Assembly (NCBI RefSeq): GCF_963510575.1
Contig: NZ_CAUPFR010000006.1
Span: forward strand, 3,119-27,118
Direction of reading: 5' to 3'
Origin: an uncultured Anaerococcus sp.
GTDB taxonomy: Bacteria; Bacillota; Clostridia; Tissierellales; Peptoniphilaceae
DNA length: 24,000 nucleotides
Position numbers and translations under genes: made by a program. Positions 6,568 through 24,000 of this stretch are shown here, piece by piece. Under the pieces are notes generated by a model. The model had not been told where the DNA came from and ran no database searches. It saw only the letters and a program-made list of their open reading frames with translations. Within the stretch, counting starts at the first letter, position 1. Every line of letters begins with the position of its first letter.

Positions 6568-7909
6568 ATCCTTGCATATATTTTTTTATCTTCCTATAAA
6601 TAAGTGTCATTGCCACAATCCCCTTCATAATAGAAGTAGAACTCATCGCAATCCACACCCCGTAGACGCCAACAAAAGGCATCAAAACAAGGGCTATAGG
6701 TATCCTCAAGAGATTGTTGATCACGCCAAGGGCAGCAGGAGTCTTTGTATCGCTCATCCCATTAAAACAGCCAGCCAAACCTATCTCAATCGCCATAAAG
6801 CCTTGGGAAAGACCCAGGATAAAGAGATAATTTGCCCCAAGTTTTATGGCCTCTTCGCTCTCTGGAGTAAAAAGCTCAAAAAGTTTGTGCCTAAAAATAA
6901 TCAAAACCAAAGTCGCAATAATACCGATAAGGGCTACTAGCCTAAAGGCTTCCTTAATAGACTCCTTGACCCTCTTTTTATTCTCAGCCCCAAAATTTTG
7001 GGCAACAAGGGCTTGGATACCAACCTGGATACCCTCAGTAGTATTCCAAGAAATCGACTCAAGTTGACTTCCTATAGCGCAAACAGCAACAGGTGTTGGA
7101 CCGAAAGCTGACATAAACCTATTCAAAACCATAGAAATTGACGCATGGAAACCTGATAATAAAGCCGCAGGCAAACCAAGCTTAAAAATTTCTAGCTGCC
7201 AATTTTCCCTATAATCAATATAAGAAATAGCAGACTTAATAATCCCGTCCTTAGAAATCACAAGCAAAAAGTAAAGCAAAACAACTATAAATTGGCTAAT
7301 AATCGTAGCCAGAGCTGCTCCTTTTGCCCCCATATGTGGAAAAGGACCAAGACCGAAAATTAAAACCGGGTCTAAAACCATATTGAAAAAAAGACCCACA
7401 GCATTAATCACAAAAGGCGTAAAAGAATCCCCAAGAGATGTAAAAGACTGGGTAAACATAGGCCCTAGGAAAAAGAAAATCATCCCCAAACTTACCACAA
7501 AGAAATAATCCTTGGCAGCCATTTCAGCCTCATGGCCCAAATTATAAAATTCTATAAAAACATTTTTTACAATAAGGCAAAAGGTTGTAAAAAACAAACC
7601 GATGACAATAGCCTGGATAAAACCATTATTAATAATCATCACCGTTTCCTTCTCATTTTGCGAACCAAAAGCCTGGGAAGCATAAACTCCCATGCCAACC
7701 TTAGGTATAAGGACAAGGGAATTGCCTATCCAAAAAATAAAACCAGCTATCCCAACCCCTGCCATAGCCTTGGTGCCCAACCTTGCAATCCAAATAGTAT
7801 CAACAAAGCCATAGGCAATCTGGATAAAGGCTGTAAGGGCCAAAGGAAAAGACAGCTTCAAAAGCGTGCTCCTAATATTTCCATGCAATAAATCTATTTT
7901 CCTATTCAT
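6566..7909 (-). CDS. MATE family efflux transporter
   Basis: 447 aa with about 12 TM segments. The N-terminus 'LLKLSFPLALTAFIQIAYGFVDTIWIARLG' is the typical MatE repeat signature. Confidence 0.85.
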   Translation of the reverse strand: MNRKIDLLHGNIRSTLLKLSFPLALTAFIQIAYGFVDTIWIARLGTKAMAGVGIAGFIFWIGNSLVLIPKVGMGVYASQAFGSQNEKETVMIINNGFIQAIVIGLFFTTFCLIVKNVFIEFYNLGHEAEMAAKDYFFVVSLGMIFFFLGPMFTQSFTSLGDSFTPFVINAVGLFFNMVLDPVLIFGLGPFPHMGAKGAALATIISQFIVVLLYFLLVISKDGIIKSAISYIDYRENWQLEIFKLGLPAALLSGFHASISMVLNRFMSAFGPTPVAVCAIGSQLESISWNTTEGIQVGIQALVAQNFGAENKKRVKESIKEAFRLVALIGIIATLVLIIFRHKLFELFTPESEEAIKLGANYLFILGLSQGFMAIEIGLAGCFNGMSDTKTPAALGVINNLLRIPIALVLMPFVGVYGVWIAMSSTSIMKGIVAMTLIYRKIKKYMQG

Positions 7910-7994
7910 AAAGACTCCTATATAAGTTATAACCTTATTATTCTACTAATATTTTACGAATTGTCATTTAATTTATCAAAAGTATATTGAATAT

Positions 7995-8651: not shown

Positions 8652-8727
8652 ATTTCAAAAAGTAAATCTAAACTATAAAAATATTTCAAAGCAAAGACCT
8701 TCCACAAAGCTAAGGAAAATGTTTGTG

Positions 8728-8756
8728 TGGACCTTATTTCTATTCTCTACTATAAT
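8728..8756 (+). promoter_or_regulatory. Candidate promoter of the regulator/PTS operon
   Basis: TGGACC (8728-8733), 17-nt spacer, perfect TATAAT (8751-8756). Lies 20 nt upstream of ATG 8776. Confidence 0.4.
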
Positions 8757-8775
8757 AAAGATACAAGGTGGTTAT

Positions 8776-10653
8776 ATGATTGAAACAAGATTAAAACAAA
8801 TATTTGACTACCTAACTCTTGACTACGACTACCATACGTCAAAAGAGATAGGAGAAGTAATGGAATTATCTTCTAAAACCATAAGAAAGGAGATAAACCT
8901 ACTAAATTCAGCTATAAAAGATAAGGGAGCCTTTATAGAATCCAGGCCAGGAAAGGGTTTTATTTTTATCATCAATGACAAGGACAAATTCAAACTGTTC
9001 TTGAAAAACGATTGGCACAAATATGCCTACTACCAAGAAGAAGACGGGGACAAAAACCTTAGGTATGTAAACATCCTAAAGACCTTCTTATTCTCAAACT
9101 CCTATATCAAACAATTTGAACTAGCCGAAACCTTTCACGTAAGTGAATCACAAATCAACAAAGACTTGCCCCTAATAAGGCAAATCCTAGAAACCTATAA
9201 CCTAGACCTTGTAGCAAAACCCTACTACGGCATGAAGGTAGAAGGAAGTGAGAAAAATATCAGGCTAGCAATCAAAAATGAAATAGGAGAAGATCCCCTA
9301 ATTTTTGAAGGCGACAAGGATAAGGACTTATTTGGCAAAATCCAAGAAATCATAGAAAATATTGACTTCGGCGAATCTTATTTCATGCCCTATGTGAGTT
9401 TCAAAAACCTAGTCATCCACATCTATATATCGATTTTAAGAATAAGGCAAAAAAAATATATCAGCCTGGCAAAAGATTTTGAAAAGAAAATCGAAACCTA
9501 TAAAGAATATAAGTTAGGCAAAAATATTGTAAACGAACTAGAAAAAAACCTAGACCTACAAATCCCAAAAGAAGAGCTAGTCTACATCACCATGCACCTA
9601 ATAGCCAAAAATACAATAAGGGACCAGGAAAAAATATCAACAGAAATCCTCGAACTATCACAAAGTATAATCGATGAAATCTACAAGGTCTCCAAATACG
9701 ATTTTAGGGCAAATATAGACTTCTACTTCTCCCTCGCCATCCACCTCAGCCCCTTAGCAAATAGGATAAAATACGGTTTTAACATGAAAAACCCCATCCT
9801 AGATGACATCAAAGAAAACAAAATATCCTACCTTTTGGCAACAATCGGGGCAAATGTAATAAACGAAAAATACCAAACAAAATTATCAGAAGACGAAATT
9901 GGCTACATAGCCCTCCACATAATGGCGGCTATGAATTCTAACTCAGTAAACCAAAAGAAAATCCTTATAATCTGTGGTTCAGGCAACTCCTCAGCCCAGA
10001 TAATGAAAGCCCAGCTAAACAGGCAATTTAAGGAAAAAATAGACAGCCTAGACACAACTGACCTAAGGAGCCTAAAAAACTTAGACCTAAAAAATTATGA
10101 CCTGGTCATTTCATCAATAAAACTAGACTACGACCTAGAAATCCCTGTGGTTTATGTTGATATAATATTTTCTAAAAATGACTTGGATAACTTAAAACTC
10201 GCCTTTGAAGATAAGAGACTGGCAAAAATCTACGACTTGTTCAACAATTCTATCTTCATAAAGACTAGTCAGTTTAAAAACAAGTTAGAAATCCTAAAAT
10301 ATATTTCAGAATGTATAGAAGAAAAATCTGCCATGAACAAAGACCTTGCCCTTAAACAATTGAAACAAAGGGAAGATATGGGTTATACCTTGTTTAACCA
10401 AATAGCCATCCCCCACATCCTAGACCAGGTTGATGGAGATTCCTACTCTATAATTATCGTCTTAGACAATCCTGTAAAATGGAACGAAACAAGCGCCAGA
10501 CTAGTTTATTCCCTAATCATAGGCAAGGAACTAGCTGATATGAGCCTATATTACGAAAAACTCGGCTTGTTTTTATCAAGCCACAAGTCAGTCACCAGGG
10601 CTCTTGAAGCAAATAATCAAATGGACTTTATGAACATATTCTTGAACGTTTAA
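8776..10653 (+). CDS. PRD-domain transcriptional regulator (MtlR/LicR/ManR class: HTH + 2 PRD + EIIB-like + EIIA-like)
   Basis: Start moved to ATG 8776 (MIETRLKQIF...), which follows the RBS AAGGTGG. N-terminal HTH ('TSKEIGEVMELSSKTIRKEINLL'). PRD His contexts 'LVIHIYISILR', 'ITMHLIAK', 'LAIHLSPL', 'IALHIMAA'. EIIB-like 'ILIICGSGNSSAQIM'. EIIA-like 'IAIPHI'. Confidence 0.8.
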   Translation: MIETRLKQIFDYLTLDYDYHTSKEIGEVMELSSKTIRKEINLLNSAIKDKGAFIESRPGKGFIFIINDKDKFKLFLKNDWHKYAYYQEEDGDKNLRYVNILKTFLFSNSYIKQFELAETFHVSESQINKDLPLIRQILETYNLDLVAKPYYGMKVEGSEKNIRLAIKNEIGEDPLIFEGDKDKDLFGKIQEIIENIDFGESYFMPYVSFKNLVIHIYISILRIRQKKYISLAKDFEKKIETYKEYKLGKNIVNELEKNLDLQIPKEELVYITMHLIAKNTIRDQEKISTEILELSQSIIDEIYKVSKYDFRANIDFYFSLAIHLSPLANRIKYGFNMKNPILDDIKENKISYLLATIGANVINEKYQTKLSEDEIGYIALHIMAAMNSNSVNQKKILIICGSGNSSAQIMKAQLNRQFKEKIDSLDTTDLRSLKNLDLKNYDLVISSIKLDYDLEIPVVYVDIIFSKNDLDNLKLAFEDKRLAKIYDLFNNSIFIKTSQFKNKLEILKYISECIEEKSAMNKDLALKQLKQREDMGYTLFNQIAIPHILDQVDGDSYSIIIVLDNPVKWNETSARLVYSLIIGKELADMSLYYEKLGLFLSSHKSVTRALEANNQMDFMNIFLNV

Positions 10654-10680
10654 GGTAAATATAATCTAAAAGGAGGACTT

Positions 10681-11658
10681 ATGTACGCTTTAATTGGAAC
10701 TTGGAGGATGTCCCTCGAAGGCATAGAAAAAAGCCTAAAAGATTTGGCAAATGGCAAAAGTGCAGCAGACGCCATGACCCAAACCATAAAAGAAGTCGAA
10801 AACTTTCCCTATTTTAAATCTGTAGGCTATGGTGGCCTACCAAATGAAAATATGGAAGTTGAACTAGATGCAGCCTTCATGGACGGAAGTAATTTTAACT
10901 TCGGCGCTGTTGCAGGAGTCAAAAATATTAAAAACCCAATCGCTGTCGCAAGAGACTTGTCAAAATTTGATGCCAACAACTTTTTGGTAGGACCAGGTGC
11001 AGAAAAATACGCCGACCAAAACGGTTTTGAAAGGGTAAACATGCTCACAGATAGGGCAAAAATCCATTACAAAAACCGTCTCTACCAAGAAAAAAAATTA
11101 TCCATGGAAAGAGACCTAAAACCCTATATAGGTCACGATACTGTTGGAGTTTGTGCCCTTGACAAGGATGGCAACATCGCCTGTGGCACATCTACAAGTG
11201 GACTTTTTATGAAAAAGCCAGGCAGGGTTGGCGATAGTCCTGTAATTGGATCAGGTCTTTATGCGGACAGTGAAGTTGGAGCTGCCACTGCTACAGGCCT
11301 TGGGGAAGACCTCATGAAAGGTTGTATCTCCTACGAAATCGTAAGGCTAATGAAAGAAGGATACCAGGTCCAAGACGCCTGTGATCAGGCAGTAAACAAT
11401 TTGGATAAAATCCTAAAGAAAAAAAGGGCTAAAAGTGGTGACCTATCGGTAGTAGCCATTGACAAGGACGGAAATTTTGGCGTAGCAACCAACATCGACG
11501 GCTTCTCCTTTGTTTATGGAGGCGAAAACCAACCAGCCAAGGTTTATCTCTGCTACAGGGAAAATGACAAAACCCTCTACAAAGAAGCAAGCTCCGACTG
11601 GCTTGATGACTATATGAAAACCAGAACTGCACCACTAAAATTATTAGAAGAAGAATAG
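10681..11658 (+). CDS. Ntn-hydrolase of the Asparaginase_2 family, glycosylasparaginase type (N4-(beta-N-acetylglucosaminyl)-L-asparaginase); cytoplasmic
   Basis: 'GHD|TVGVCALDKDGNIACGTSTSGLFMKKPGRVGDSPVIGSGLYADSEVGAATATGLGEDLM'. The His-Asp-Thr autoprocessing site (Thr codon 11140-11142) and 'GAATATG' resemble the human AGA and flavobacterial enzymes more than the EcAIII-type 'GTVG...VSCTGTGE'. The N-terminus 'IGTWRMS' starts directly, with no signal peptide. Confidence 0.7.
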   Translation: MYALIGTWRMSLEGIEKSLKDLANGKSAADAMTQTIKEVENFPYFKSVGYGGLPNENMEVELDAAFMDGSNFNFGAVAGVKNIKNPIAVARDLSKFDANNFLVGPGAEKYADQNGFERVNMLTDRAKIHYKNRLYQEKKLSMERDLKPYIGHDTVGVCALDKDGNIACGTSTSGLFMKKPGRVGDSPVIGSGLYADSEVGAATATGLGEDLMKGCISYEIVRLMKEGYQVQDACDQAVNNLDKILKKKRAKSGDLSVVAIDKDGNFGVATNIDGFSFVYGGENQPAKVYLCYRENDKTLYKEASSDWLDDYMKTRTAPLKLLEEE

Positions 11659-11666
11659 GAGGAAAT

Positions 11667-11987
11667 ATGGAAGATTTAGAATTGATTTGTTTTCAAATCA
11701 TCTCACACGCAGGCACAGCCAAATCAAACTATATAGAGGCTATGGCCAAGGCAAGGGAGGGTGATTTTAAAAGAGCTTCAGAACTAATTGAGGAGGGTGT
11801 AAAGTCCTACAGACTTGCCCACAAGGCCCACTCATCCCTAATTACAGAAGAAGCATCTGGCAACAAGGTAGAAGTAGGTCTTTTACTAATGCACGCCGAA
11901 GACCAACTAATAACAACGGAGGTGATAAAATTAATGGCTGAAGAAAATATTCAGCTAATAAAAGAAATTAGGAAAATAGATGAGTAA
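11667..11987 (+). CDS. PTS lactose/cellobiose-family EIIA component
   Basis: 106 aa three-helix EIIA: 'IISHAGTAKSNYIEAMAKAREGDF' and the phospho-His context 'LLMHAEDQL'. Confidence 0.85.
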   Translation: MEDLELICFQIISHAGTAKSNYIEAMAKAREGDFKRASELIEEGVKSYRLAHKAHSSLITEEASGNKVEVGLLLMHAEDQLITTEVIKLMAEENIQLIKEIRKIDE

Positions 11988-12564
11988 AAAATCTAAAATA
12001 AAAATAGAGGAAAACACAAAAACTGGATATTTTATTAAAAGAGTCTTTGCTTATATGATAGACTGGTACATCTCCTCTGTCCTTTTAAACTTAGCCATAA
12101 GGCTATGCTTGATTTTTACTGGACTTGGAGATAAGTACGGAGCCATAGTTATTAAAAGTAATAAGGCAGATGCTATAATAATTCTTATGTCACTATTAAT
12201 AGCCTTTAGCTACTATGTACTAATCCCTTATACTTCAAAAACTACTGCCACCCTAATGAATAAGGTTATGAAGCTTGAAATAGTTAATATGGACGGAAGC
12301 AAACCTAGTCTTATGACCCTAACAAAAAGGTATTTTCTAGGATGTTTCCTCCTCCAAGGTATTTTGTATTCGCCTTTTAACACTATCATCCAAACCATAT
12401 TTCAACACATAAACCCTAGTGGTGCAAAGAGCTTTGATATCATTTTAGCCTCAACCATGGCCCTTATAATAGCTTATTCATCTTTTAAAGCCCTCAAAGA
12501 TAAGAAAACTCATCAAGCACTTCAAGATGCGATTTCAAACACTTATGTAAGAAAAAGGAAGTAA
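11980..12564 (+). CDS. RDD-family integral membrane protein
   Basis: 194 aa with about 3-4 TM segments. 'KRVFAYMIDWYISSVLL' and 'LEIVNMDGSKPSLMTLTKRYFLG' fit the RDD pattern (R..A..ID ... DG..P). The ATG overlaps the EIIA stop by 8 nt. Confidence 0.6.
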   Translation: MSKKSKIKIEENTKTGYFIKRVFAYMIDWYISSVLLNLAIRLCLIFTGLGDKYGAIVIKSNKADAIIILMSLLIAFSYYVLIPYTSKTTATLMNKVMKLEIVNMDGSKPSLMTLTKRYFLGCFLLQGILYSPFNTIIQTIFQHINPSGAKSFDIILASTMALIIAYSSFKALKDKKTHQALQDAISNTYVRKRK

Positions 12565-12566
12565 TT

Positions 12567-12893
12567 ATGAAAAAATTTTATTTATTTTGCAACGCCGGTA
12601 TGTCCACAAGCCTACTAGCTAGCAAAATGCAAAAAGTAGCCAACGAACACAACTTGCCTATAGAAGTAAAGGCCTTTCCTGATTCTGAAATGGATACAAT
12701 AATAAATTCAGAAAATCCAGACGCCATCCTCTTAGGCCCACAAGTACGCCACATTTATGAAAAAACAAAAGAAAAATACGGCAATCTTGGAAAGGTTATC
12801 ATGCCAATAGATCCTGATGATTATGGCACAATGAACGGCGAAAGAGTTCTAAAAGCAGCTATCTTAGAATACAAGAAAAACGGAGGTAAATAG
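12567..12893 (+). CDS. PTS lactose/cellobiose-family EIIB component
   Basis: 108 aa. The N-terminal 'FYLFCNAGMSTSLLASKMQ' has the active-site Cys in the canonical CxAGMSTS loop. Confidence 0.85.
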   Translation: MKKFYLFCNAGMSTSLLASKMQKVANEHNLPIEVKAFPDSEMDTIINSENPDAILLGPQVRHIYEKTKEKYGNLGKVIMPIDPDDYGTMNGERVLKAAILEYKKNGGK

Positions 12894-12895
12894 AA

Positions 12896-14248
12896 ATGTT
12901 AAAAAAACTAGATTCGTTCCTATCCCCAATAGCTAACACCTTATCAAAAAACAAAATATTAAGTGCGATTAGAGATGGTTTCTTAATTACAACCCCAATT
13001 GTAATTATCGGCTCCCTATTTTTATTAATTGCCAACTTCCCAATCAACGGCTACGAAGAATTTATGGCTGGTATTTTTGGAGAAGGTTGGGATGCTTATC
13101 TTGGCAGAGTAACAGCCATAGCCTTTGACTGTATAGCCCTCCTAGCATCATTTTCTATTGGTTATTGCTATGCTCGTGAAAAAGGACTAGCTGATAAGGT
13201 ATCTGCTGCTGCAGTTGCCCTAGTATCCTTCTTGATAGTAACACCTCAAAAACACCCAGACTTTGTAAATATAGAAGATTCCGAAAAAGTATTCCGTGGA
13301 TTCTCCTTTGGAAACTTTGGTACAGCTGGTATCTTCCTATCAATGATAGTAGCAATCATATCTGTAAGCATTTTTGCTTGGGCAGTCAAAAGAAAACTTG
13401 TAATCAAACTACCTGATGGAGTTCCTCCAGCAGTAATGGATTCTTTTGCGGCCCTAATCCCTGCAGCCCTATCAATGGTATTCTTCTTTGTGATAAATAT
13501 AATTATTTCACATACATCTTATGAATACCTCCACAACCTAATTTACCAAGTTCTCCAAGCACCACTTGTTGGTCTAGGAAGATTTGCCCTATTTGAAGTT
13601 ATATACCAATTCTTATCAACCCTCTTCTGGTTCTTTGGTATAAACGGCCCTGCTGTTACAAATACAGTATTCTCACCAATCCACAAGGCTCTTACACTTG
13701 AAAACTACGAAGCAGCTCAAGCTGGTCTAAAGATGACAAACATCTTCACAGCTGGATTCTCAGATTTCTTCTGCAACTTCGGTGGTGGTGGATCAACACT
13801 AGGTCTTGTAATAATGATGTCATTCCTAGCCAAATCTGAAAGAATGAAAGTTTTAGGTAGATTATCTCTTCCTGCAGGCATCTTTGGAATTAACGAACCA
13901 ATCATCTTTGGTCTACCAATAGTATTAAACCCAATCATGATTATTCCATTTATCCTATCACCTATTGCAAATACAGTTATAGCTTACCTTGCAACTATCA
14001 CAGGCTTTATCCCTGTTACATCTGGTATCCAACTACCATGGACAACCCCAATAGGATTCTCAGGCTACCTCATCACAGGTACCTTCTCTGCAGTAATCTT
14101 ACAGCTAGGCCTACTTGCCCTAAACATGGCAATCTACTACCCATTCATGAAATTACTAGATAAGCAATACCTAGAAGAAGAAAAGAATAAGGTAGAAGAA
14201 GTTGACGAAATAGACTCCCTATCATTTGACGATTTAAGCCTAGATTAA
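12896..14248 (+). CDS. PTS lactose/cellobiose-family EIIC permease
   Basis: 450 aa polytopic protein. 'AIRDGFLITTPIVIIGSLFLLIANFP', 'GINGPAVTN', 'GGGGSTLGL' and 'INEPIIFGLPIVLNP' are typical of Lac/Chb-family EIIC. Confidence 0.85.
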   Translation: MLKKLDSFLSPIANTLSKNKILSAIRDGFLITTPIVIIGSLFLLIANFPINGYEEFMAGIFGEGWDAYLGRVTAIAFDCIALLASFSIGYCYAREKGLADKVSAAAVALVSFLIVTPQKHPDFVNIEDSEKVFRGFSFGNFGTAGIFLSMIVAIISVSIFAWAVKRKLVIKLPDGVPPAVMDSFAALIPAALSMVFFFVINIIISHTSYEYLHNLIYQVLQAPLVGLGRFALFEVIYQFLSTLFWFFGINGPAVTNTVFSPIHKALTLENYEAAQAGLKMTNIFTAGFSDFFCNFGGGGSTLGLVIMMSFLAKSERMKVLGRLSLPAGIFGINEPIIFGLPIVLNPIMIIPFILSPIANTVIAYLATITGFIPVTSGIQLPWTTPIGFSGYLITGTFSAVILQLGLLALNMAIYYPFMKLLDKQYLEEEKNKVEEVDEIDSLSFDDLSLD

Positions 14249-14268
14249 TTTTTAGAAAGAAGTGACAA

Positions 14269-14781
14269 ATGAAAGTATTAATGATCTTTGATCAGGGTTT
14301 GGCTGGTGCTGGCGGAAAATCAAATCCCAACCAAGAACTAGCTATAGCAAAGGGCGGAATTGGTTCTGCCCTTATGCTAAAACCCCATTTTGATAAAATT
14401 TCCGCAAGCATTGTAGCCACCTTATATTGTGGCAACGAATATTTTCTAAACCACCAAAAAGAAGTAGTAATAAAAATGACCAAGATGGCAGAAAAGATAA
14501 AACCAGACCTAGTTGTCTGTGGGCCATGTTTTAACTTTGAAGACTACGCCCTAATGTCTGCTGAAATTGCCCTAAGTATAAAAGAATACACCGATATCCC
14601 TGTACTAGCCATGATGTCCAAAGAAAACGAAGCTACTATCTCTAACTTTAAGGACAAGATAGACATCCTAAAGATGCCAAAAAAAGGTGGCACAGGGCTT
14701 AGCGAAAGTTTTGACAACCTAGCTAACTATATAGATAGGAAGGTCAATGGTGGAGAAATAAATAAGGACCACTTATATTAA
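14269..14781 (+). CDS. Stand-alone protein resembling the N-terminal domain of the glycine/sarcosine/betaine reductase component B (GrdB) family; function unknown
   Basis: 170 aa. 'KVLMIFDQGLAGAGGKSNP', 'VATLYCGNEYF', 'KPDLVVCGPCFNFEDYALMSAEIA' and 'IPVLAMM' line up, from memory, with GrdB 'VVHYxNQFFAGIGGEEKA...VICGDxYF...PDLFIAGPAFNAGRYGxACG...IPVxTGM'. It lacks the C-terminal Sec-containing region. Confidence 0.4.
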   Translation: MKVLMIFDQGLAGAGGKSNPNQELAIAKGGIGSALMLKPHFDKISASIVATLYCGNEYFLNHQKEVVIKMTKMAEKIKPDLVVCGPCFNFEDYALMSAEIALSIKEYTDIPVLAMMSKENEATISNFKDKIDILKMPKKGGTGLSESFDNLANYIDRKVNGGEINKDHLY

Positions 14782-14786
14782 AAATT

Positions 14787-15785
14787 ATGACAAAAAATAA
14801 AATCAAAGAAATCTACGATATTTATTCCGTATCCAGTTTTGAAAGACAAATCAGCGACTATCTCGAAAAAGCCTACCAAGCCTATGACTATAAAATAGTA
14901 AAAGATAAGCTAAACTCAGTTTTTTTCAACAAGGCAAATCCCGGTCGTAAAAAAGTAATGATAGCCTTTCCCCTAGATGAATACGGATTAATGGTTAGAG
15001 AAATAGAAGATAATGGAAAAATAAGGTTCATCCTCCTAGAAGATATTTCTCCATTATCTTTTTTAAATCAAAGAGTAAATATAATCACAAGAAACAAAAA
15101 AAATATAAAAGGTATCGTAAAGGCAGATGTAAAATTTGCTGAAGATTCTAAGACAAATATTGGCGAAGATGATCTTTATATAGAAGTCTTAGCTCCTAAG
15201 GATAAGCTAAAAGAAAGTGTAAAAATAGGCGACCTTGTAAGTTTAGATTCGCCCTTTTATGAAGATGAAAACTTTATAATGGCAAGGTCTCTTAGCCAAA
15301 AAATCTACCAGTATCTTTCCATAAGCCTAGCCGAAAAAATCAAGGATAAGACCTATCCTTTTGATTTGTATGTTGGGGGTATATCCCAATCAACCATCGG
15401 TTTTAGGGGGACAAAAACTGCTACCTACGTAATAAAGCCAGACCTCGCCCTAGCACTCACAAGTTTTGAAACTAACGCCTCAAGCCCAAAAATTTCCCTA
15501 GGCGATGGCCTAATAGTCGGCAAATATGACAAGCAAATGCTACCCGATAGGAAACTTTTATCCTTTGTAGAAGACAGGTTTGAAGCTAAGGCCTACCTTG
15601 GTCTTAGGGGCAATGACGGATCTTTTATCCACAAAACTATTTCTGGAACCCCTTGCCTATCCCTAGGTCTTGCCACAGCAAATATCTCAACAGCCAATGA
15701 AATAATTTCTAAAACCGACATAGAAAAGCTAGAAAATTTCTTGATTGATTTCCTAGATCAAGTTGGCGAATTTTTAGGGGAATGA
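14787..15785 (+). CDS. M42-peptidase-fold paralog with all metal-ligand positions substituted (predicted pseudo-peptidase)
   Basis: Colinear with the next gene and with M42/TET peptidases. However 'AFPLDEYG' replaces 'AHxDEIG', 'MARSLSQKI' replaces 'xxDDR/DNRxx', 'ISQSTIGFRGT' replaces 'VQEEVGLRGA', 'ALALTSF' replaces 'AIDVT', and there is no 'RYxHS/T' His. Confidence 0.6.
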   Translation: MTKNKIKEIYDIYSVSSFERQISDYLEKAYQAYDYKIVKDKLNSVFFNKANPGRKKVMIAFPLDEYGLMVREIEDNGKIRFILLEDISPLSFLNQRVNIITRNKKNIKGIVKADVKFAEDSKTNIGEDDLYIEVLAPKDKLKESVKIGDLVSLDSPFYEDENFIMARSLSQKIYQYLSISLAEKIKDKTYPFDLYVGGISQSTIGFRGTKTATYVIKPDLALALTSFETNASSPKISLGDGLIVGKYDKQMLPDRKLLSFVEDRFEAKAYLGLRGNDGSFIHKTISGTPCLSLGLATANISTANEIISKTDIEKLENFLIDFLDQVGEFLGE

Positions 15786-15786
15786 T

Positions 15787-16848
15787 ATGGATGTAGGAAA
15801 ATTCAAAGACCTTGCAAGCCTTCCCGGCCTAAGCTCTTTTGAAGACAGGGTCGTAAATCATTTAGAAAAAAACCTAGATGCTAAGGACCTAGAAATTCAA
15901 AAAGACGGGATAGGTAGCCTAATTGTAAGAAAAAAACCTAGCCAAAGCCAAAATCCTCTAAAACTCATGTTTGCAACCCACATAGATGAAATTGGGTTTT
16001 TGGTAGAAGATTTTAGGGGCAATTTTTTGAAACTAAGGCCTGTTGGTTCTACCTGGACCCACTTAGTTGTTGGACAAATTTACCAATTGATCAATAAGGA
16101 TGGCAAGAGATATTTTGGAGTCATATCCTCTCCTGCAACCCACGGCAGGAGTGCGGAAGAAAAATCCAAAACCCTAAGCCAGGATGAACTCTACCTGGAT
16201 TTGGCTTTGGAAGATGGGGATTTTGAGAAATTGAATATAGGAATTGGCGATGAGGTAGTTCCCTATGCACCAGACCTTGACCTTGCTAATGATAAATTTT
16301 TCCTAGCCAAGGCCATAGACAACAGGATTTCTGCCTACCTTGGCGAAGAGATTTTAGCTGAGAAGCTTGCCAACAAAACCGACCTCTACTGGGCCTTTAC
16401 CGTCCAAGAAGAACCAGGTCTTAGGGGTGCTCGCACGGTTACAGATATAGTTAGACCAGACCTGGCCTTTGCCATTGACACCACCCTCGCAGGTGATACC
16501 GTCTTTGACAAAAACTCAGTCAAACTCGGTGGTGGCCTTGTCCTTTCCTTTATAGATTCAAACTCCATAGCCCACAGGGGACTCATGCGTTGGGTCGAAA
16601 ATTTGTGCGAAGCTAACAAAATAAAATACCAGTACGCAGTCTTTAACAAGGGTGGAACTGATTCTGGCAATATCCACAAATCCCTAGATGGAATCATAAA
16701 TATGACCCTATCCATCCCAGTAAGGTATATGCACACCAACCACACCCTAGCCAATACAGACGATGTAGACAATTGCCTAAGGCTGGTAAAAACAATTATC
16801 CAAAGCCTAGATGAAAAAGAATTTGAAAAAATTAAGGATTTGCAATGA
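15787..16848 (+). CDS. M42 family metallopeptidase (TET/glutamyl-aminopeptidase/FrvX-like)
   Basis: 'ATHIDEIGFLV', 'KAIDNRIS', 'FTVQEEPGLRGA', 'AFAIDTTLAGD' and 'VRYMHTNHT' retain all five canonical M42 metal-binding positions. Confidence 0.8.
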   Translation: MDVGKFKDLASLPGLSSFEDRVVNHLEKNLDAKDLEIQKDGIGSLIVRKKPSQSQNPLKLMFATHIDEIGFLVEDFRGNFLKLRPVGSTWTHLVVGQIYQLINKDGKRYFGVISSPATHGRSAEEKSKTLSQDELYLDLALEDGDFEKLNIGIGDEVVPYAPDLDLANDKFFLAKAIDNRISAYLGEEILAEKLANKTDLYWAFTVQEEPGLRGARTVTDIVRPDLAFAIDTTLAGDTVFDKNSVKLGGGLVLSFIDSNSIAHRGLMRWVENLCEANKIKYQYAVFNKGGTDSGNIHKSLDGIINMTLSIPVRYMHTNHTLANTDDVDNCLRLVKTIIQSLDEKEFEKIKDLQ

Positions 16849-17951
16849 AAGAAAAGATTGACCAAATGGTCGACTCCCTAAGAGACGACCTAATTTCGGA
16901 CCTAAGAGAAGTAATAAAAATCCCTAGCAAAAAAGGGGAAGCCACAGCTGATGCTCCCTATGGCCTAGCCTGCAAAAGGGTTTTAGAAAAAATAATCGAA
17001 ATCACTGGCAAAAAGGGTTTTGCCACAAAAAACGTAGACAACCACATGGCTTATTGTTCAATCGGCGAAGGTACTGACTATGTTTGCGCCATGGGCCACC
17101 TAGATGTGGTCGATGAAATGCCGGGTTGGAAATACCCTCCCTTTGCCGGAGAAATCCACGAAAACAGGATGTATTCTAGGGGGGCACTTGACAACAAGGG
17201 CCCAATCATGGCAGCATTTTACGGTCTATATGCCCTAAAGAAATTAGGTGTAAATTTCAACAAGGAATTTAGGATTGTCTTTGGCTCTGATGAAGAAAGT
17301 GGCATGGCAGACCTCAGCTATTATCTAACTAAGGAAAAACCACCTATCATGGGCTTTTCCCCAGACAATAAATTCCCAGCCATCTACGGAGAAAGGGCCA
17401 GAGCTAAGGTCGCCTTAAAAGGAGATTTTGAATGTTTTGAAAATTTCCTAAATAAAAAAATCTTTGCCGGCGACCCAATCAAAAATCTGGCTATAGACAT
17501 CAGTGACCAAGACTTCGGTAGGATGATTTTGAGGGGCAAGAAAATTTTTAGGGATAAAGATGAATATGGTATAGAATTTAGCCTATCCATGCCTATTTGT
17601 GATAAGGATTATGTCCTAAAACAAATCGAGGAAAACGCCCTCGGCCTCAAAGTAAGGCTAATATCCTACGAAGAAGCCTTCCTAGCAGATAAAAATTCTG
17701 CCCTAGTGGAGATTTTAAATGACGCCTACAATGATTATCTAGGGGCAAATGAAAAACCAACCACAACCACAGGCATGACCTACGCCCATTTTTGCCCAAA
17801 TATAATCCCCTTTGGTCCATCATTCCCAGGACAAAACGGGATTGCCCACCTCCCAAACGAATGGATGGACATAGACGATTTGATAAAATGCACAAAAATC
17901 TACGCCTACGCCTTTTATAAAATCAACGAAAATTTCAATAAAGGAGAATAA
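16845..17951 (+). CDS. M20 family metallopeptidase (PepV/Sapep-like dipeptidase, short form)
   Basis: 'GHLDVVDEMPGWKYPPF', 'SRGALDNKGP' and 'FGSDEESG' are M20 metal-ligand motifs. The start overlaps the M42 stop (ATGA). Confidence 0.75.
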   Translation: MKEKIDQMVDSLRDDLISDLREVIKIPSKKGEATADAPYGLACKRVLEKIIEITGKKGFATKNVDNHMAYCSIGEGTDYVCAMGHLDVVDEMPGWKYPPFAGEIHENRMYSRGALDNKGPIMAAFYGLYALKKLGVNFNKEFRIVFGSDEESGMADLSYYLTKEKPPIMGFSPDNKFPAIYGERARAKVALKGDFECFENFLNKKIFAGDPIKNLAIDISDQDFGRMILRGKKIFRDKDEYGIEFSLSMPICDKDYVLKQIEENALGLKVRLISYEEAFLADKNSALVEILNDAYNDYLGANEKPTTTTGMTYAHFCPNIIPFGPSFPGQNGIAHLPNEWMDIDDLIKCTKIYAYAFYKINENFNKGE

Positions 17952-17952
17952 A

Positions 17953-18846
17953 ATGAAAAGATTAATAAGTTCTAATGCCTCAGACCTCTGTGCCTATTCT
18001 GCAAAAGAACTCAAACAAAGTATCAAGGCAAGCGAAGGCAGGACAGTCTGCGCAGAAAATGTTGCCGTCAGAGAAGCCTTCATAGGAGATATAACCGGAG
18101 CAGAAATCGCAAGAGCCTTTGGCGCTGACCTCATCCTCCTAAACGCAGTTGATGTCCTAGAACCAAAGCTTGCCGGCATCGAAAACCAAGCCGATTTTGT
18201 AAATGAACTAAAAAAACTTGTCGGTAGACCAATCGGAGTTAACCTCGAACCTGTAGACCCAAATGCCAAAATGATGGAAAACACCCTAGCTATTTCTAGG
18301 GGCAGGACAGTCAATGAAGACAGTTTGGCTGCCCTAGATAAGCTTGGCATGGACTTCTTGTGCCTAACAGGCAATCCTGGCACAGGAGTTACCAACAAAA
18401 CCATAGCCGAATCCATAAAACTAGCCAAGGAAAATTTCTCAGGCCTCATCATAGCAGGCAAGATGCACTCATCAGGTGTAGACGAACCTGTAACCAGCAA
18501 GGAAACCATAGAGACCTTCATCAAGGCAGGCGCAGATATAATCCTAGTCCCAGCAGTGGGTACAGTTCCAGGCTTTGACAGCGATGATCTCAAAGAAGCT
18601 GTAAAAGTTGCCCACGCCAATGACGCCCTAGTCATGACAGCCATCGGCACCAGCCAAGAAGGATCTAGCAAGGAAACCATCAGACAAATCGCCATAGCCA
18701 ACAAAATCTGTGGCGTAGATATCCAACACATAGGAGATGCCGGCTACGGAGGCCTCGCACCAGTAGAAAACATCTTCGAACTAAGCCTAGCTATCAGAGG
18801 CATCAGACATACTGTTTCTATGGTTGCTAGGTCCGTTAATAGGTGA
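17953..18846 (+). CDS. Uncharacterised protein, predicted (beta/alpha)8 TIM-barrel-like enzyme
   Basis: 297 aa with a regular series of short hydrophobic strand motifs: 'ADLILLNA', 'IGVNLEP', 'DFLCLTGNPGTG', 'LIIAGKMH', 'ADIILVPAVGTVPG', 'LVMTAIGTS', 'VDIQHIGDAG'. Last gene before the terminator. The long antisense ORF 17994-18731 is judged a shadow ORF. Confidence 0.35.
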   Translation: MKRLISSNASDLCAYSAKELKQSIKASEGRTVCAENVAVREAFIGDITGAEIARAFGADLILLNAVDVLEPKLAGIENQADFVNELKKLVGRPIGVNLEPVDPNAKMMENTLAISRGRTVNEDSLAALDKLGMDFLCLTGNPGTGVTNKTIAESIKLAKENFSGLIIAGKMHSSGVDEPVTSKETIETFIKAGADIILVPAVGTVPGFDSDDLKEAVKVAHANDALVMTAIGTSQEGSSKETIRQIAIANKICGVDIQHIGDAGYGGLAPVENIFELSLAIRGIRHTVSMVARSVNR

Positions 18847-21540: not shown

Positions 21541-22728
21541 CTAGTTGTTTTTCTTTCTGGTTGCAACAATGCCAGCCATTGAGATAGCAAGTGTTGAAAG
21601 AACTGGAGCTACGCTTTCAAGACCAGTCTTTGGATTCTTGCGACCAGCTTGACGAGCAGGAGCTTGTTTCTTGTTTTCTGCTTCTACTACTTTTTTCTTG
21701 TTTTCTTTAGCTTTAGATTTTTCTTTAACTTCTGTAGTTTCTTTTTCTTTAGCTTCTTTTTCAGTTTCTACTTCTTTGCTTTCTTCTAGTTTAGGAAGAG
21801 TAACTTCTTCGTCAACCTTACCAGGTTTGATTAATGGGTATTCATAATCATAAGATGGAACTGGTTTAACATCTGGTTTAACATCTGGTTTAACATCTGG
21901 TTTCTTTTCTTCTTTTTCATTTATTTCTGGAACAAAGTAGTAATTATTATTTAAACCCTTCATAATTCTGAAAGAATTGAATTCAGGGTGTTTTTTAAGA
22001 TATGCTTTAGCTGCAATTTCAGCTTGTTCTCTACTGATGTATCCATCTTCAGAGTTTTTCTTGATTAGATAATCATCTATTGTAGTAGTTTTTTTATCTT
22101 TTTTTTCTACCTTCTTATCATCTTTTTGATTTTCAAGCCATTCATCAATTGTGACAAGTTTGTTCTTTTTGTTATATTCATCAATAGTCATTGAATTAGA
22201 CTTAAATTGATTTAGAAGCTTTTCTTTCATTTGATCTACATCATAAACAGAATCTAAGCCTTCAAGTCTTTTTAATACTTTTTCATTTTTAAGACCAGCT
22301 TTTCTCAATTCTTCTTTAGCTTTTTTAACTTCTGCTTCTATTAATGGAGCAACTCTTTCTTTTTCTTCTTTAGCTTTTCTAGCATCATCTTTTTCTTTAA
22401 ATGCTTTTTCTGCTTCTTTTACAGCTTTATCAGCATTAGTAACTTTAGTTTGTGCATTAGTTACAGCTTGTTTTGCTTGTTCTATAGCCGCATCATTATT
22501 TTCTTTTTTTTCTTCTTCAGCTTGTTTTGCTTTTGCATCAGCTAAATCTTTATTAGCTTTTTCCAAATCTTTTTTAGCTGCTTGAACATCTTGATCAAGA
22601 TCATAAAGTGTCTTTTCTGCTGGTGCTGGAGCAGCTGGTTGATTTCCTGCATCTTGAGCATGGGCAACACCACCTGAAAGGATAAGACCTGCAGATAAGG
22701 CAACTGCTAGTATTCTATTTGTTTTCAT
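21541..22728 (-). CDS. Cell-wall-anchored surface protein: signal peptide, Ala/Lys/Glu-rich coiled coil, GA-module-like segment, KPDV repeats, NPKTG sorting signal
   Basis: Signal peptide 'MKTNRILAVALSAGLILSGGVAHA'. The C-terminus 'NPKTG-LESVAPVLSTLAISMAGIVA-TRKKNN' gives a sortase motif, a hydrophobic span and a basic tail. RBS GGAGAT. Confidence 0.8.
   Translation of the reverse strand: MKTNRILAVALSAGLILSGGVAHAQDAGNQPAAPAPAEKTLYDLDQDVQAAKKDLEKANKDLADAKAKQAEEEKKENNDAAIEQAKQAVTNAQTKVTNADKAVKEAEKAFKEKDDARKAKEEKERVAPLIEAEVKKAKEELRKAGLKNEKVLKRLEGLDSVYDVDQMKEKLLNQFKSNSMTIDEYNKKNKLVTIDEWLENQKDDKKVEKKDKKTTTIDDYLIKKNSEDGYISREQAEIAAKAYLKKHPEFNSFRIMKGLNNNYYFVPEINEKEEKKPDVKPDVKPDVKPVPSYDYEYPLIKPGKVDEEVTLPKLEESKEVETEKEAKEKETTEVKEKSKAKENKKKVVEAENKKQAPARQAGRKNPKTGLESVAPVLSTLAISMAGIVATRKKNN
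21861..21903 (-). repeat. 12-bp tandem repeat (3.6 copies) encoding (KPDV)n inside the surface protein gene
   Basis: CTGGTTTAACAT occurs three times, plus a partial copy CTGGTTT. All copies are identical. Confidence 0.9.
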
Positions 22729-22810: not shown

Positions 22811-22894
22811 ATAATATGTAGAAATTTTGTGCTTTTTGTAAAAAATTTTGTGGGTAGGAAATATTTTTACAGGTCATAAAGAAAAAAATCAGAA

Positions 22895-23087
22895 TGACAC
22901 CCCACCGCTATTCCGAGGAAACTGGAGAAATCTCTCGCCATCAACTCCCCCTCGTCTCGAGCGAGCGGAGAACAAGCCCGTCGGCTCGGGGAGACTGGAG
23001 AGACCTCTTGCTATCAACTCCCCCCTCGCTTCGACCGAGCGGAGAACAAGCCCGTCGGCTCGGGGAGACTGGAGAAGTCTCTTTCCA
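22895..23087 (-). repeat. Three head-to-tail copies of the GC-rich repeat core (reverse orientation): 22895-22940, 22941-23013, 23014-23087
   Basis: Units 2 and 3 are 73 and 74 bp and mismatch at only a handful of positions (by-eye alignment). Read on the minus strand, each unit contains 'AGAGnnnTCTCCA', a hairpin insert and 'TCGARRCGAGGGG' (the last block is degenerate in unit 1). Confidence 0.85.
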
Positions 23088-23141
23088 TTTTTATAAAGCA
23101 AATATGGTAAAGGTGTCATGACCACCTAAAATCAAGAATAA

Positions 23142-23235
23142 TTTTACAACAAAATCCCAAGTCCATACCAGGGCCAATCCTAATTTGGTCCAGAGGTTTC
23201 TCCACTTCGGTCGAAACGAGGGTGGTGGGTTTGAG
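23142..23235 (+). repeat. Repeat copy A1: left arm plus core (short hairpin variant)
   Basis: 'TTTTACAACAAAATCCCAAGTCCATACCAGGGCCAATCCTAATTTGGTCCAGAGGTTTCTCCA-CTTCGG-TCGAAACGAGGGTGGTGG'. Confidence 0.85.
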
Positions 23236-23293
23236 TTTGCTTTGAAGATTAAAATTGCTGTTATTTTGAAAATTAATTTCTTTTATAAAAGTG

Positions 23294-23398
23294 AAATCCC
23301 AAGTCCCGACCAGAGCCAATCCTTAGTTGGTCCAGAGATTTCTCCATGCGTTCGTTTCACTCACTTAGTCGAAACGAGGGGTGTGGTGTCGGGATTTG
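23294..23398 (+). repeat. Repeat copy A2: left arm plus core (7-bp stem insert)
   Basis: 'AAATCCCAAGTCCCGACCAGAGCCAATCCTTAGTTGGTCCAGAGATTTCTCCA...TCGTTTC/GAAACGA...GGGGTGTGGTGTCGGGATTT'. The ends are partly complementary (TCCCGAC/GTCGGGA). Confidence 0.85.
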
Positions 23399-23454
23399 TT
23401 CACCTCCCCCCCTCGTCTCGACCGAGCGTAAGCGAGTGGAGAGATCTCTCGCCA
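23399..23454 (-). repeat. Repeat core R3 (reverse orientation), abutting A2
   Basis: The reverse complement reads 'GGCGAGAGATCTCTCCA-CTCGCTTACGCTCGG-TCGAGACGAGGGGGGGAGGTG', colinear with the A2 core. Contains the perfect 12-nt palindrome GAGAGATCTCTC (23439-23450). Confidence 0.8.
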
Positions 23455-23508
23455 CCTTTATATAATTTATATGGTAAAGGTGTCAAGTTATTTTAAAAGC
23501 AAGGTTCA

Positions 23509-23549
23509 TTTTACAAACAAAATCCCAAGTCCCTACCCCAACAATCCCC
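23509..23549 (+). repeat. Repeat copy A3: left arm only (truncated), overlapping the 3' end of the GIY-YIG gene
   Basis: 'ATTTTACAAACAAAATCCCAAGTCCCTACCCCAACAATCC' matches the A1/A2/A4 left arms, then similarity stops. The GIY-YIG stop codon (23533-23535) lies inside it. Confidence 0.7.
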
Positions 23550-23823
23550 AATATAAATCTATCCATTTTGGGTTCATTTTACTTATTATTTTATCTTTCT
23601 TTTTTCTAGACCATTTACCAACTTGGTGTTCCCTTGCTCTTGCGCTTTGGATATCATCATAGCATTCATAATATATCAACCTTGTCACATTGTATTTGTC
23701 AGTGAAGCTATCTTTCAATAGGTGTTCCTTATGCTCGTAGATTCTTCTGATTAAGTCGGTTGTTGAGCCTTTATATAATACTTCGTTTGTTTCATTTGCG
23801 AGCATATAAAAATAAGCTGCCAT
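23533..23823 (-). CDS. Small stand-alone GIY-YIG nuclease family protein (URI-domain only)
   Basis: 96 aa. 'YFYMLANETNEVLYKGSTTDLIRRIYEHK' carries the GIY and YIG elements plus the conserved Arg. 'ARAREHQVGKWSRKKK...MNPKW' carries the catalytic Glu region. RBS AAGGAGA. Confidence 0.8.
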   Translation of the reverse strand: MAAYFYMLANETNEVLYKGSTTDLIRRIYEHKEHLLKDSFTDKYNVTRLIYYECYDDIQSARAREHQVGKWSRKKKDKIISKMNPKWIDLYWGLLG

Positions 23824-23848
23824 AACTTCTCCTTCATATTTATTAATA

Positions 23849-23876
23849 TTTATATACCCAATATTTTGTTTGTCAA
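23849..23876 (-). promoter_or_regulatory. Near-consensus promoter dedicated to the GIY-YIG gene
   Basis: On the minus strand: TTGACA (23871-23876), 16-nt spacer, TATAAA (23849-23854). Confidence 0.5.
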
Positions 23877-23888
23877 AATTTTAAATTT

Positions 23889-24000
23889 AATTACAAAAAC
23901 ATCCCAAGTCCCAACCAGAGCTAATCCTTTGTTGGTCCAGAGATTTCTCCATAGTTTACCTCGAGCGTAGTCGAGAGGAAACAAGGGGTAGTGTTTGACT
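23889..24000 (+). repeat. Repeat copy A4: left arm plus core (long hairpin variant), cut by the window edge
   Basis: 'ATTACAAAAACATCCCAAGTCCCAACCAGAGCTAATCCTTTGTTGGTCCAGAGATTTCTCCA', then an imperfect hairpin GTTTaCCTCGA/TCGAGaGGaAAC (23954-23982), then 'AAGGGGTAGTG'. Confidence 0.8.

Follow-up and report, generated by a model that had tools for sequence, protein, structure and literature searches.

The repeat cluster at the end of the analysed DNA (hereafter the window, a stretch of 24,000 nt from an Anaerococcus genome) is a nest of insertion-sequence-like units built around a gene encoding a 96-residue GIY-YIG protein. The repeat is probably a new and more complex partner of an Ssn-type nuclease, i.e., an Anaerococcus-specific interspersed family whose full-length member carries the gene and whose cores would act as hairpins in single-stranded DNA (ssDNA). 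No cores, arms or other elements of the family are present within positions 1-22,800 of the window; at the other side, the cluster extends about 30 nt beyond the window end and stops at a serine dehydratase gene. A preliminary description of the same DNA had presented the region as an intergenic stretch, which it is not purely, since the GIY-YIG ORF lies in the middle of the cluster. This gene had been overlooked, and the closest known system, that of the Ssn nucleases and the hairpin repeats on either side of their genes (PMC11893778), was therefore missed. The cluster contains the following features:

22895..22940 (-): terminal degenerate core, with 5' block AGAGATTTCTCCA and the 3' block replaced by GGAATAGCGGTGGGG
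22948..23008 (-): 61-nt core of a tandem unit, AGAGGTCTCTCCA ... TCGAGACGAGGGG, apical stem CCGAGC/GCTCGG
23022..23082 (-): 61-nt core, the first after the conserved box, AGAGACTTCTCCA ... TCGAAGCGAGGGG
23072..23142 (-): conserved 'R' left part, a spacer and box with ATGACA (23119-23114), 17 nt and TATAAA (23096-23091)
23145..23235 (+): unit end A1, with arm 23145-23204, 32-nt core 23192-23223 and tail GGTGGTGGGTTTGAG
23287..23398 (+): unit end A2, with arm 23287-23346, 48-nt core 23334-23381 (stem CGTTTC/GAAACG) and tail
23409..23449 (-): 41-nt core that closes the gene-bearing unit on its downstream side
23439..23511 (-): conserved 'R' left part directly 3' of the nuclease gene, with TTGACA (23486-23481), 18 nt and TATAAA (23462-23457)
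23509..23533 (+): direct-repeat copy 1, TTTTACAAACAAAATCCCAAGTCCC, which is the truncated fourth arm and abuts/overlaps the ORF stop codon
23533..23823 (-): GIY-YIG nuclease gene, 96 aa, single domain, Ssn-family homolog by the tblastn criterion of PMC11893778
23824..23888 (-): upstream region of the nuclease gene, with TTGACA (23876-23871), 16 nt, TATAAA (23854-23849) and RBS GGAGAAG (23833-23827)
23889..24000 (+): unit end A4, with direct-repeat copy 2 (23889-23912), arm 23892-23951 and 50-nt core 23939-23988, the 3' block of which is degenerate (ACAAGGGG); the tail continues beyond the window end

Read in the direction of the gene, a gene-bearing unit is composed of an inverted core, an arm, a direct repeat of ~24 bp, a promoter-like region with an RBS, the GIY-YIG ORF, the same direct repeat, a spacer with a conserved box (GACACC..ACCATAT..TATAAA) and a core. 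Gene-less units correspond to gene-bearing units minus the ~380-bp cassette located between the two direct repeats (family D5, spacing 379); ends and interior are common to both types, which align throughout and carry inverted cores at both ends, and the units are 200-300 bp long. In the window, A1 together with positions 23014-23142 forms one complete gene-less unit. The orientations and positions previously given for the reverse copies hold; these copies are the opposite end of the same unit. The left arm, formerly viewed as an appendage of the forward copies, turned out to be non-coding DNA that lies upstream of the nuclease gene and is retained in gene-less units.

The repeat observation itself was confirmed, all seven cores being found where the preliminary description had placed them. 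The block AGAGRNNTCTCCA has four exact matches on the minus strand (22923-22935, 22996-23008, 23070-23082 and 23437-23449) and three on the plus strand (23192-23204, 23334-23346 and 23939-23951); allowing up to one mismatch, the window contains 10 matches (the seven exact ones and three elsewhere) for a shuffle mean of 1.02, and no shuffle attains 10. The left arm does occur four times, as previously reported, with starts at 23156, 23298, 23524 (the truncated copy, which overlaps the end of the GIY-YIG gene at its stop codon) and 23903, against 0.02 expected from shuffles, and both direct and inverted repeat families were confirmed in the cluster. Two further ORFs lying over the repeats (22848-23096 and 23185-23496) have no Pfam match and were treated as spurious.

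The cores follow the formula AGAG-[RYYTC]...[GARRC]-GAGGGG, with a basal helix between the two bracketed pentamers. They range in length from 32 to ~150 nt and have a swappable apex of 6 to >100 nt above this helix. The two variable bases of the first block and the two purines of the third are not free to vary; they are mutually complementary and form a helix that had gone unseen: 126 of 136 positions are complementary, compared with 79±5 in 5000 shuffles, and compensatory changes are present. In the class of 32-nt cores, three pairs change on both sides, and none of 500 shuffles attains the observed value. The covariation that the preliminary description had proposed to look for thus exists, in the basal helix and in one inner pair. 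The self-complementary insert described earlier is real in A2, A4 and the 61-nt tandem units, but thermodynamically unremarkable. Most cores fold with no more favourable energy than shuffled sequence (ssDNA folding z from +1.1 to -2.4, most values not significant), and we dropped thermodynamic stability as a hallmark of the cores, as it is not distinctive.

Since the observed complementarity fits DNA and RNA alike, the helix alone cannot tell which molecule folds, and it could also be read as the structure of an RNA. The units would then be small structured RNA genes, each R unit having a TTGACA-N17/18-TATAAA promoter for its transcription and some of them ending at a terminator-like hairpin, with the GIY-YIG gene as a neighbour or partner. 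Besides the compensatory base-pair changes in the cores, this reading could account for the -35/-10-like box that precedes each R core by 5-8 nt and for the GGGAC-GTAA-GTCCC hairpin with a T run, flagged as terminator-like by a scan, that follows some R cores. In the arm helix, which shows no both-side changes and whose shuffle control is uninformative, each change confined to one side leaves a G·U pair on one of the two strands. However, this wobble asymmetry is contradictory, as it points to the F strand in the arm, yet on that strand the basal helix begins with an A·C pair in 6 of 20 sequences, and folding energies show no asymmetry between sense and antisense cores (46 of 81 favour sense), being ordinary in any case. 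The promoter scan did not report the R box because its '-10' never ends in T, as in the copy at 23072..23142, which is promoter-like apart from this missing final T; other species have lost the '-35' TTG (TAGACA, AAGACA, CAGACT) but kept GACACC and ACCATAT, unlike what promoter conservation would produce. For these three reasons, we downgraded the promoter reading of the box. The F cores, which are antisense to the gene, have no promoter of their own. An Rfam scan gave no match at the gathering threshold, only microRNA matches at chance level (E up to 10), and SsnA does not interact with RNA (PMC11893778). Taken together, small RNA genes appear an unlikely explanation of the units.

The 96-aa protein encoded in the cluster contains a GIY-YIG domain (Pfam PF01541, residues 3-76, E 3e-13) and no other domain. 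It shares 42% identity over 95 of its 96 residues (99%) with a 94-aa ORF of Neisseria gonorrhoeae (pairwise BLASTP E 3e-28; tblastn E 2e-18 in a 7.3-Gb database), values within the published limits for an SsnA homolog, namely an alignment covering >75% of the length with E <1e-10 (PMC11893778). Ssn, a family of site-specific ssDNA nucleases, has SsnA as its type member (Chenal et al., Nat Commun 2025, PMC11893778). Our comparator for SsnA is this gonococcal ORF, from a gonococcal chromosome mislabelled among plasmids, and not the N. meningitidis protein CAX49033.1; we consider it the SsnA ortholog because it is surrounded by NTS-like copies (20 copies with at most 2 mismatches, in both orientations), as in the system of PMC11893778. 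Judged by homology, the 96-aa protein is thus a member of the Ssn family. Other searches were less specific: NCBIfam returned only a weak match to a group I intron endonuclease model, the relatives in the PDB are UPF0213 proteins (E 0.015), and a profile search of the protein family, which does not by itself settle Ssn membership, retrieved at least 8000 relatives, those listed being Legionella-like. A Legionella-type homolog with 56% identity has neither SRM, the repeat motif associated with Ssn genes, nor flanking repeats, and hence provides no link from the 96-aa protein to SRM-flanked genes.

Residues Y6, Y17, G19, R27, H31, E65 and N84 are invariant in an alignment of 11 sequences, and we take these positions to be catalytic by analogy with I-TevI. 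In the pairwise alignment with the gonococcal ORF, the first six of these residues face identical ones, and an N is found beside, not opposite, N84. The dN/dS ratio among paralogs is 0.06-0.13, a sign of purifying selection on the nuclease gene. Upstream of it, the non-coding DNA shares ~89% identity with the A. murdochii copy, compared with 70% at third codon positions, which points to constraint there too.

The family is not restricted to the window. Several Anaerococcus-like genomes carry related GIY-YIG genes (75-95% identity), at no fewer than six different loci, and the same cores flank all of these genes; cores were found on both sides of every retrieved GIY-YIG gene with at least 75% identity. 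The orientation is strict, R units being always co-oriented with the GIY-YIG gene and arms always opposite. Up to 6 R units occur on one 11.8-kb contig, and there are also solitary units with no GIY-YIG gene nearby. The Anaerococcus of the window is close to A. murdochii; three overlapping A. murdochii-type loci (18-21 kb) without the gene contain no repeat copies. No copy was found in viral contigs, plasmids or phages. The clusters adjoin surface-protein genes, like NTS clusters in Neisseria. A local duplication or an assembly artefact of one locus might have been suspected, as contigs often break inside the cluster and the left-arm pattern gave, in reference genomes, three listed matches in unrelated taxa that look like chance. 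This is refuted by the presence of the family at many other loci, in the isolate genome GCA_019957155.1 and in independent metagenomes, and such an origin can be dismissed with near certainty. The motif is therefore not confined to this locus, which the preliminary description had named as the outcome that would speak against its proposal; the family is dispersed, mosaic and variable in copy number between strains.

At the locus of the window, copy number varies among 10 metagenome contigs. The target-site duplications that the preliminary description had suggested searching for were not found at these strain differences; the polymorphic junctions lie inside shared blocks, a pattern consistent with recombination from copy to copy but no demonstration of transposition. 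No clean or orthologous empty site was found, and the syntenic region of A. murdochii offers none for comparison because synteny ends before the cluster. These observations bear on the possibility that a conventional transposon, with its transposase encoded elsewhere in the genome, gave rise to the repeats as its MITEs, the GIY-YIG cassette being a passenger or a homing-type selfish gene inserted between direct repeats in one MITE copy. Inverted cores at the ends, gene-less copies otherwise identical to the gene-bearing one, a cassette bounded by ~24-bp direct repeats, the solitary units and an IS110-type transposase gene on one retrieved contig would all agree with such an origin. We nevertheless regard it as rather improbable: in addition to the missing target-site duplication, no transposase is present inside or beside any unit in about 20 loci, the units are strictly oriented relative to the GIY-YIG gene and tightly clustered around it, and the architecture of gene plus repeat is the hallmark of Ssn systems (PMC11893778).

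The preliminary interpretation was apt in recalling REP/BIME clusters, MITEs and ssDNA hairpins, although it missed the GIY-YIG gene and the Ssn system. The clustered, GC-rich, imperfect palindromes in alternating orientation within intergenic DNA do resemble REP/BIME elements maintained by a RAYT. Yet no Y1 (HUH) transposase gene is present in any retrieved locus, the only repeat-flanked gene being that of the GIY-YIG protein; the units, with their 200-300 bp, have a non-palindromic interior, and the conserved GTAG-type head was not seen in the sequences read. Maintenance by a RAYT is thus very unlikely.

We favour the view that the repeat and the Ssn-type nuclease work as partners. By analogy with SsnA and NTS, the nuclease would bind the cores while the DNA is single-stranded (e.g., during replication, DNA uptake or repair) and nick beside them, and these nicks could drive recombination between repeat copies. 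Such recombination would account for the mosaic structure, for the expansion and contraction of the arrays and for the movement of whole modules to new loci. A stronger version of this scenario, which we consider possible but doubtful, is a family of autonomous and non-autonomous mobile elements, with MITE-like derivatives, in which the sole protein, the 96-aa Ssn-type GIY-YIG enzyme, would serve as a nickase of hairpin ends in single-stranded form. If true, the multiplication of Ssn-associated repeats such as NTS would find an explanation, one raised only as a hypothesis in the Ssn paper (PMC11893778). The shared ends of gene-bearing and gene-less units, combined with the copy-number differences between strains, open the way to a test of whether the nuclease is what spreads or reshuffles these repeats.

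The system provides a Gram-positive example of Ssn with a new candidate recognition element and possibly a new enzyme specificity, in an enzyme family under development as an ssDNA-cutting tool. The window and all the Anaerococcus-type loci lack matches to the SRM motif HGTCWYN(0-2)YYVSBRHN(0-5)WNVSBRGN(0-2)RNCYNB, of which the gonococcal control locus has 9. The Anaerococcus repeat being invisible to this search motif, motif-based surveys undercount the family.

Several known systems can be compared with the Anaerococcus units. Pneumococcal BOX elements (boxA-boxB(n)-boxC) are modular elements of a Firmicute with conserved ends and a variable number of middle modules, and can form hairpins, as the present cores may; the two are not known to be similar in sequence and, unlike the Anaerococcus family, BOX elements are not known to have an associated nuclease gene. 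With bacterial MITEs and their parent IS, the units share the coexistence of gene-bearing and gene-less versions with common ends and interior, the inverted ends and the strain-variable copy number. They differ in that no target-site duplication was found, the protein is no known transposase and the variation is explained by recombination between copies. As in REP/BIME with RAYT (the REPtron) and IS200/IS605, mosaic hairpin clusters in both orientations accompany a small nuclease gene flanked by its own repeats, with ssDNA as the presumed substrate; here, however, the enzyme is of the GIY-YIG and not the HUH/Y1 type, and the units are much longer, with a conserved non-palindromic interior. The Ssn systems are described mainly from Pseudomonadati, whereas the present one, known from sequence, belongs to a Gram-positive anaerobic coccus. 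SRMs are inverted repeats of 20-50 nt forming hairpins (PMC11893778). The Anaerococcus repeats fall outside the SRM consensus, and their units exceed SRMs by far in size and complexity: in place of a 28-nt hairpin, they combine inverted cores with an arm and a conserved box. In contrast to Ssn systems, their gene-less versions retain the non-coding flanks of the gene, the hairpin apex is modular and the orientation relative to the gene is strict. As in the Ssn systems (PMC11893778), a single-domain GIY-YIG protein of ~95 aa is encoded by a gene flanked on both sides by GC-rich repeats, which in Anaerococcus may likewise form hairpins and which also occur clustered or solitary, mostly in intergenic DNA, and the IS-like layout repeat-gene-repeat is common to both, as are clusters beside surface-protein genes.

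All seven cores and all four left arms of the preliminary description were recovered at the same positions by pattern matching in the window, and both families were also found by a repeat finder. The core block AGAGRNNTCTCCA has seven exact matches in the window, all within 22923-23951, and 10 if one mismatch is allowed (shuffle mean 1.02; no shuffle reached 10). The arm CCCAAGTCCCNACCAGAGC occurs four times (0.02 expected), and nothing resembling core or arm was found over the window's first 22.8 kb. The repeat cluster is thus confirmed and far from chance. The stretch, previously regarded as intergenic, is not entirely so, since it includes a GIY-YIG ORF of 96 amino acids (23533-23823, minus strand; Pfam GIY-YIG, E = 3e-13), whose stop codon is overlapped by the truncated fourth arm. 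A family search with two further ORFs lying over the repeats gave no match. The initial analogy with REP/BIME, MITE or ssDNA hairpin elements pointed in the right direction, but overlooked the GIY-YIG gene, which explains the cluster.

The mosaic was resolved by aligning gene-bearing against gene-less units. Along the gene direction, a unit consists of an inverted core (formerly 'forward', F), the arm, a repeat GGGACTTGGGAT...TTTTGTAA, a promoter-like region with a ribosome-binding site, the ORF with its TAG stop, a second copy of the GGGACTTGGGAT...TTTTGTAA repeat, a spacer, a conserved box (GACACC..ACCATAT..TATAAA) and a core (formerly 'reverse', R); the box and the core downstream of it are called R unit below. 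A gene-less unit is the same without the ~380 bp between both direct repeats. In all loci oriented by the gene, R units follow the gene direction and arms the opposite one.

Repeat features at the window locus
22895-23013: two additional tandem cores, extending the outer end of the gene-less unit
23014-23235: complete gene-less unit
23287-23398: extra arm and core
23399-24030: gene-bearing unit
23509-23533 and 23889-23912: direct repeats GGGACTTGGGAT...TTTTGTAA, spacing 379 (repeat finder)

Compensatory pairs, for which a covariation check had been proposed, were found in the cores. In a set of 68 distinct cores, complementarity between the two pyrimidines that follow AGAGR and the two purines that follow TCGA holds at 126 of 136 positions (79±5 in 5000 shuffles), the combinations being TT/AA, TC/GA, CT/AG and, rarely, CC/GG; a single core length class can hold several of them. 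Pair counting on twenty 32-nt cores (500 shuffles) detected both-sided changes at three pairs (6-25, 7-24 and 12-19) with zero unpaired cells, a covariation reached by none of the 500 shuffles, and pairing amounts to 93% in the proposed structure versus 32-54% in slid registers. Because of this complementarity and these pair counts, the positions first described as 'nn' and '(A/G)(A/G)' form one helix, RYYTC/GARRC, with a variable apex above it and the purine runs AGAG and GAGGGG on either side. The apical sequences fall into a few recurring modules common to F and R cores and to different species. A long apical module, CCTTCC-ATC-[stem-TTC-stem]-GGGATAGGGCTTCAGAAACGAGGGG, is present in part of the cores; its inner stems differ wholly in sequence between copies and keep their complementarity (CGTTTTT/AAAAACG, AATTTGAT/ATCAAATT, CCATCC/GGAATGG).

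Cores with the long apical module in three comparison loci
L014: 5155-5300, 10582-10689 and 11936-12059
L031: 1605-1699
L033: 1385-1530 and 1995-2130

The folding energies of the cores as ssDNA are ordinary (z-scores +1.1 to -2.4), folding differs little between the sense and antisense strands, and changes in the arm helix are one-sided and wobble-compatible only, all of which weighs against a strong structural claim.

Ssn proteins, whose type member is SsnA of Neisseria, are single-domain GIY-YIG nucleases of ~94 amino acids that cleave single-stranded DNA beside a hairpin repeat (NTS in Neisseria, SRM generally); such repeats lie on both sides of the ssn gene as well as scattered genome-wide, in an IS-like layout (Chenal et al., 2025; PMC11893778). 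A tblastn search of a plasmid collection matched a gonococcal chromosome region encoding a 94-aa ORF, which is identified as the gonococcal SsnA ortholog because it is surrounded by NTS-like copies (20, in both orientations, with at most two mismatches). The records providing this ortholog and the NTS control locus, NZ_CP119140.1 and NZ_CP119142.1, are two 2.17-Mb Neisseria gonorrhoeae chromosomes filed as plasmids. The window protein shares 42% identity with the ortholog over its full length (E = 3e-28), qualifies as a homolog according to the criterion of Chenal et al. (2025; PMC11893778) and contains the conserved GIY-YIG residues. The dN/dS among paralogs (0.06-0.13) corresponds to purifying selection. 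One contig with R units (L042) encodes a second, more distant GIY-YIG gene (7588-7872), 49% identical to the window protein and bracketed by two 85-nt direct repeats (7379-7963), which share 98% identity and belong to an unrelated GC-rich family, as if every Ssn-like gene had its own repeat.

As the preliminary description had suggested looking for, the family occurs beyond the window, in an A. murdochii isolate and in metagenome contigs. Exact-sequence look-ups assigned the window proteins to 'uncultured Anaerococcus sp.' and revealed close relatives of them in A. murdochii. The same locus is present on ten metagenome contigs with a different number of units: in some, 22967 is joined straight to 23408; others have extra units between the nuclease and serine dehydratase genes or downstream of the nuclease gene. 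In the isolate genome GCA_019957155.1 (A. murdochii), the family lies at another locus, with two tandem GIY-YIG genes and ~10 units, and solitary units are located several kb away. Four further loci, neighboured by FIVAR, TMEM164, transglutaminase-like and glutamate-symporter genes, harbour likewise core-flanked GIY-YIG genes with 75-81% identity. A metagenome scan with the R-unit pattern yielded 11 loci, 10 of them low-GC contigs in which the units are genuine; a GIY-YIG gene is present on several of these, and two hold five or six units each. A solitary R unit in one comparison locus (L016, 551-800) faces a tRNA gene from ~80 nt upstream. No copies were found in three overlapping A. murdochii-type loci without the gene (18-21 kb), nor in the viral contigs, plasmids and phages searched. 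The arm pattern, which fits every copy at the window locus exactly and the A. murdochii arms with one or two bases off, matched no Anaerococcus genome among 185,579 species-representative genomes (three chance-like matches in unrelated taxa); this absence may reflect sequence divergence or repeats missing from draft assemblies.

In the window species, each R core is preceded by TTGACA-N17/18-TATAAA and some are followed by a terminator-like hairpin, as would be expected if the units were small RNA genes. We consider this unlikely: the second hexamer never ends with T, so that a promoter scan ignores the box, other species replace TTG but keep GACACC and ACCATAT, and an Rfam scan gave no match. 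The region upstream of the nuclease gene (23849-23876, minus strand) and the R box (23457-23486, minus strand) share one unusual pattern, TTGACA, 16-18 nt and TATAAA, in which the second hexamer closes with A rather than T.

Adjoining the cluster is a gene (21541-22728, minus strand) for a protein of 395 amino acids. This protein combines a signal peptide and a long, charged, coiled-coil-like central part with a C-terminal NPKTG motif, after which come a hydrophobic stretch and a basic tail, and it resembles surface proteins anchored to the cell wall. Surface or cell-wall proteins (aRib, FIVAR, Amidase_5/SH3_5) are neighbours at other GIY-YIG loci as well. Further away, a long co-oriented gene set conserved in A. 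murdochii (8719-18846, plus strand) encodes a BglG/PRD-type antiterminator, an asparaginase_2 (glycosylasparaginase), PTS IIA/IIB/IIC, an RDD protein, a GrdB-like protein, two M42 peptidases, one M20 peptidase and a DUF7916 protein, and resembles an operon for the use of glycopeptides or amino sugars.

Our comparisons show a putatively functional Ssn-type gene that is embedded in a repeat unit and travels with it. The unit has inverted ends and covarying pairs, and its non-coding parts are 89% conserved, versus 70% at synonymous sites. By analogy with SsnA at NTS, the protein would bind the cores as ssDNA hairpins and nick close by, and the resulting breaks could promote recombination between copies. 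The junctions of strain differences fall inside shared blocks, e.g., TGGAGAAATCTCTGGAC or CCCCCTCGTCTCGA, which is consistent with such recombination. The many distinct genomic positions argue for mobility of the unit, with the nuclease as a candidate mover; neither a target-site duplication nor an empty site was found.

The published SRM motif has no match in any of the Anaerococcus-type loci, whereas the gonococcal control gives nine. Judged from sequence, the Anaerococcus protein is an Ssn member in each of the tests that were run, but the repeat fails the sole sequence test, the SRM motif, and is not part of the SRM repeat family as presently defined. The surface-protein neighbours of the Anaerococcus clusters recall the Neisseria NTS clusters near surface-protein genes, a likeness drawn from the loci inspected. 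The enzyme family and the layout are those of known Ssn-plus-repeat systems, whereas the repeat is distinct and more elaborate and the host group is new; the element is best classed as a new form of this arrangement.
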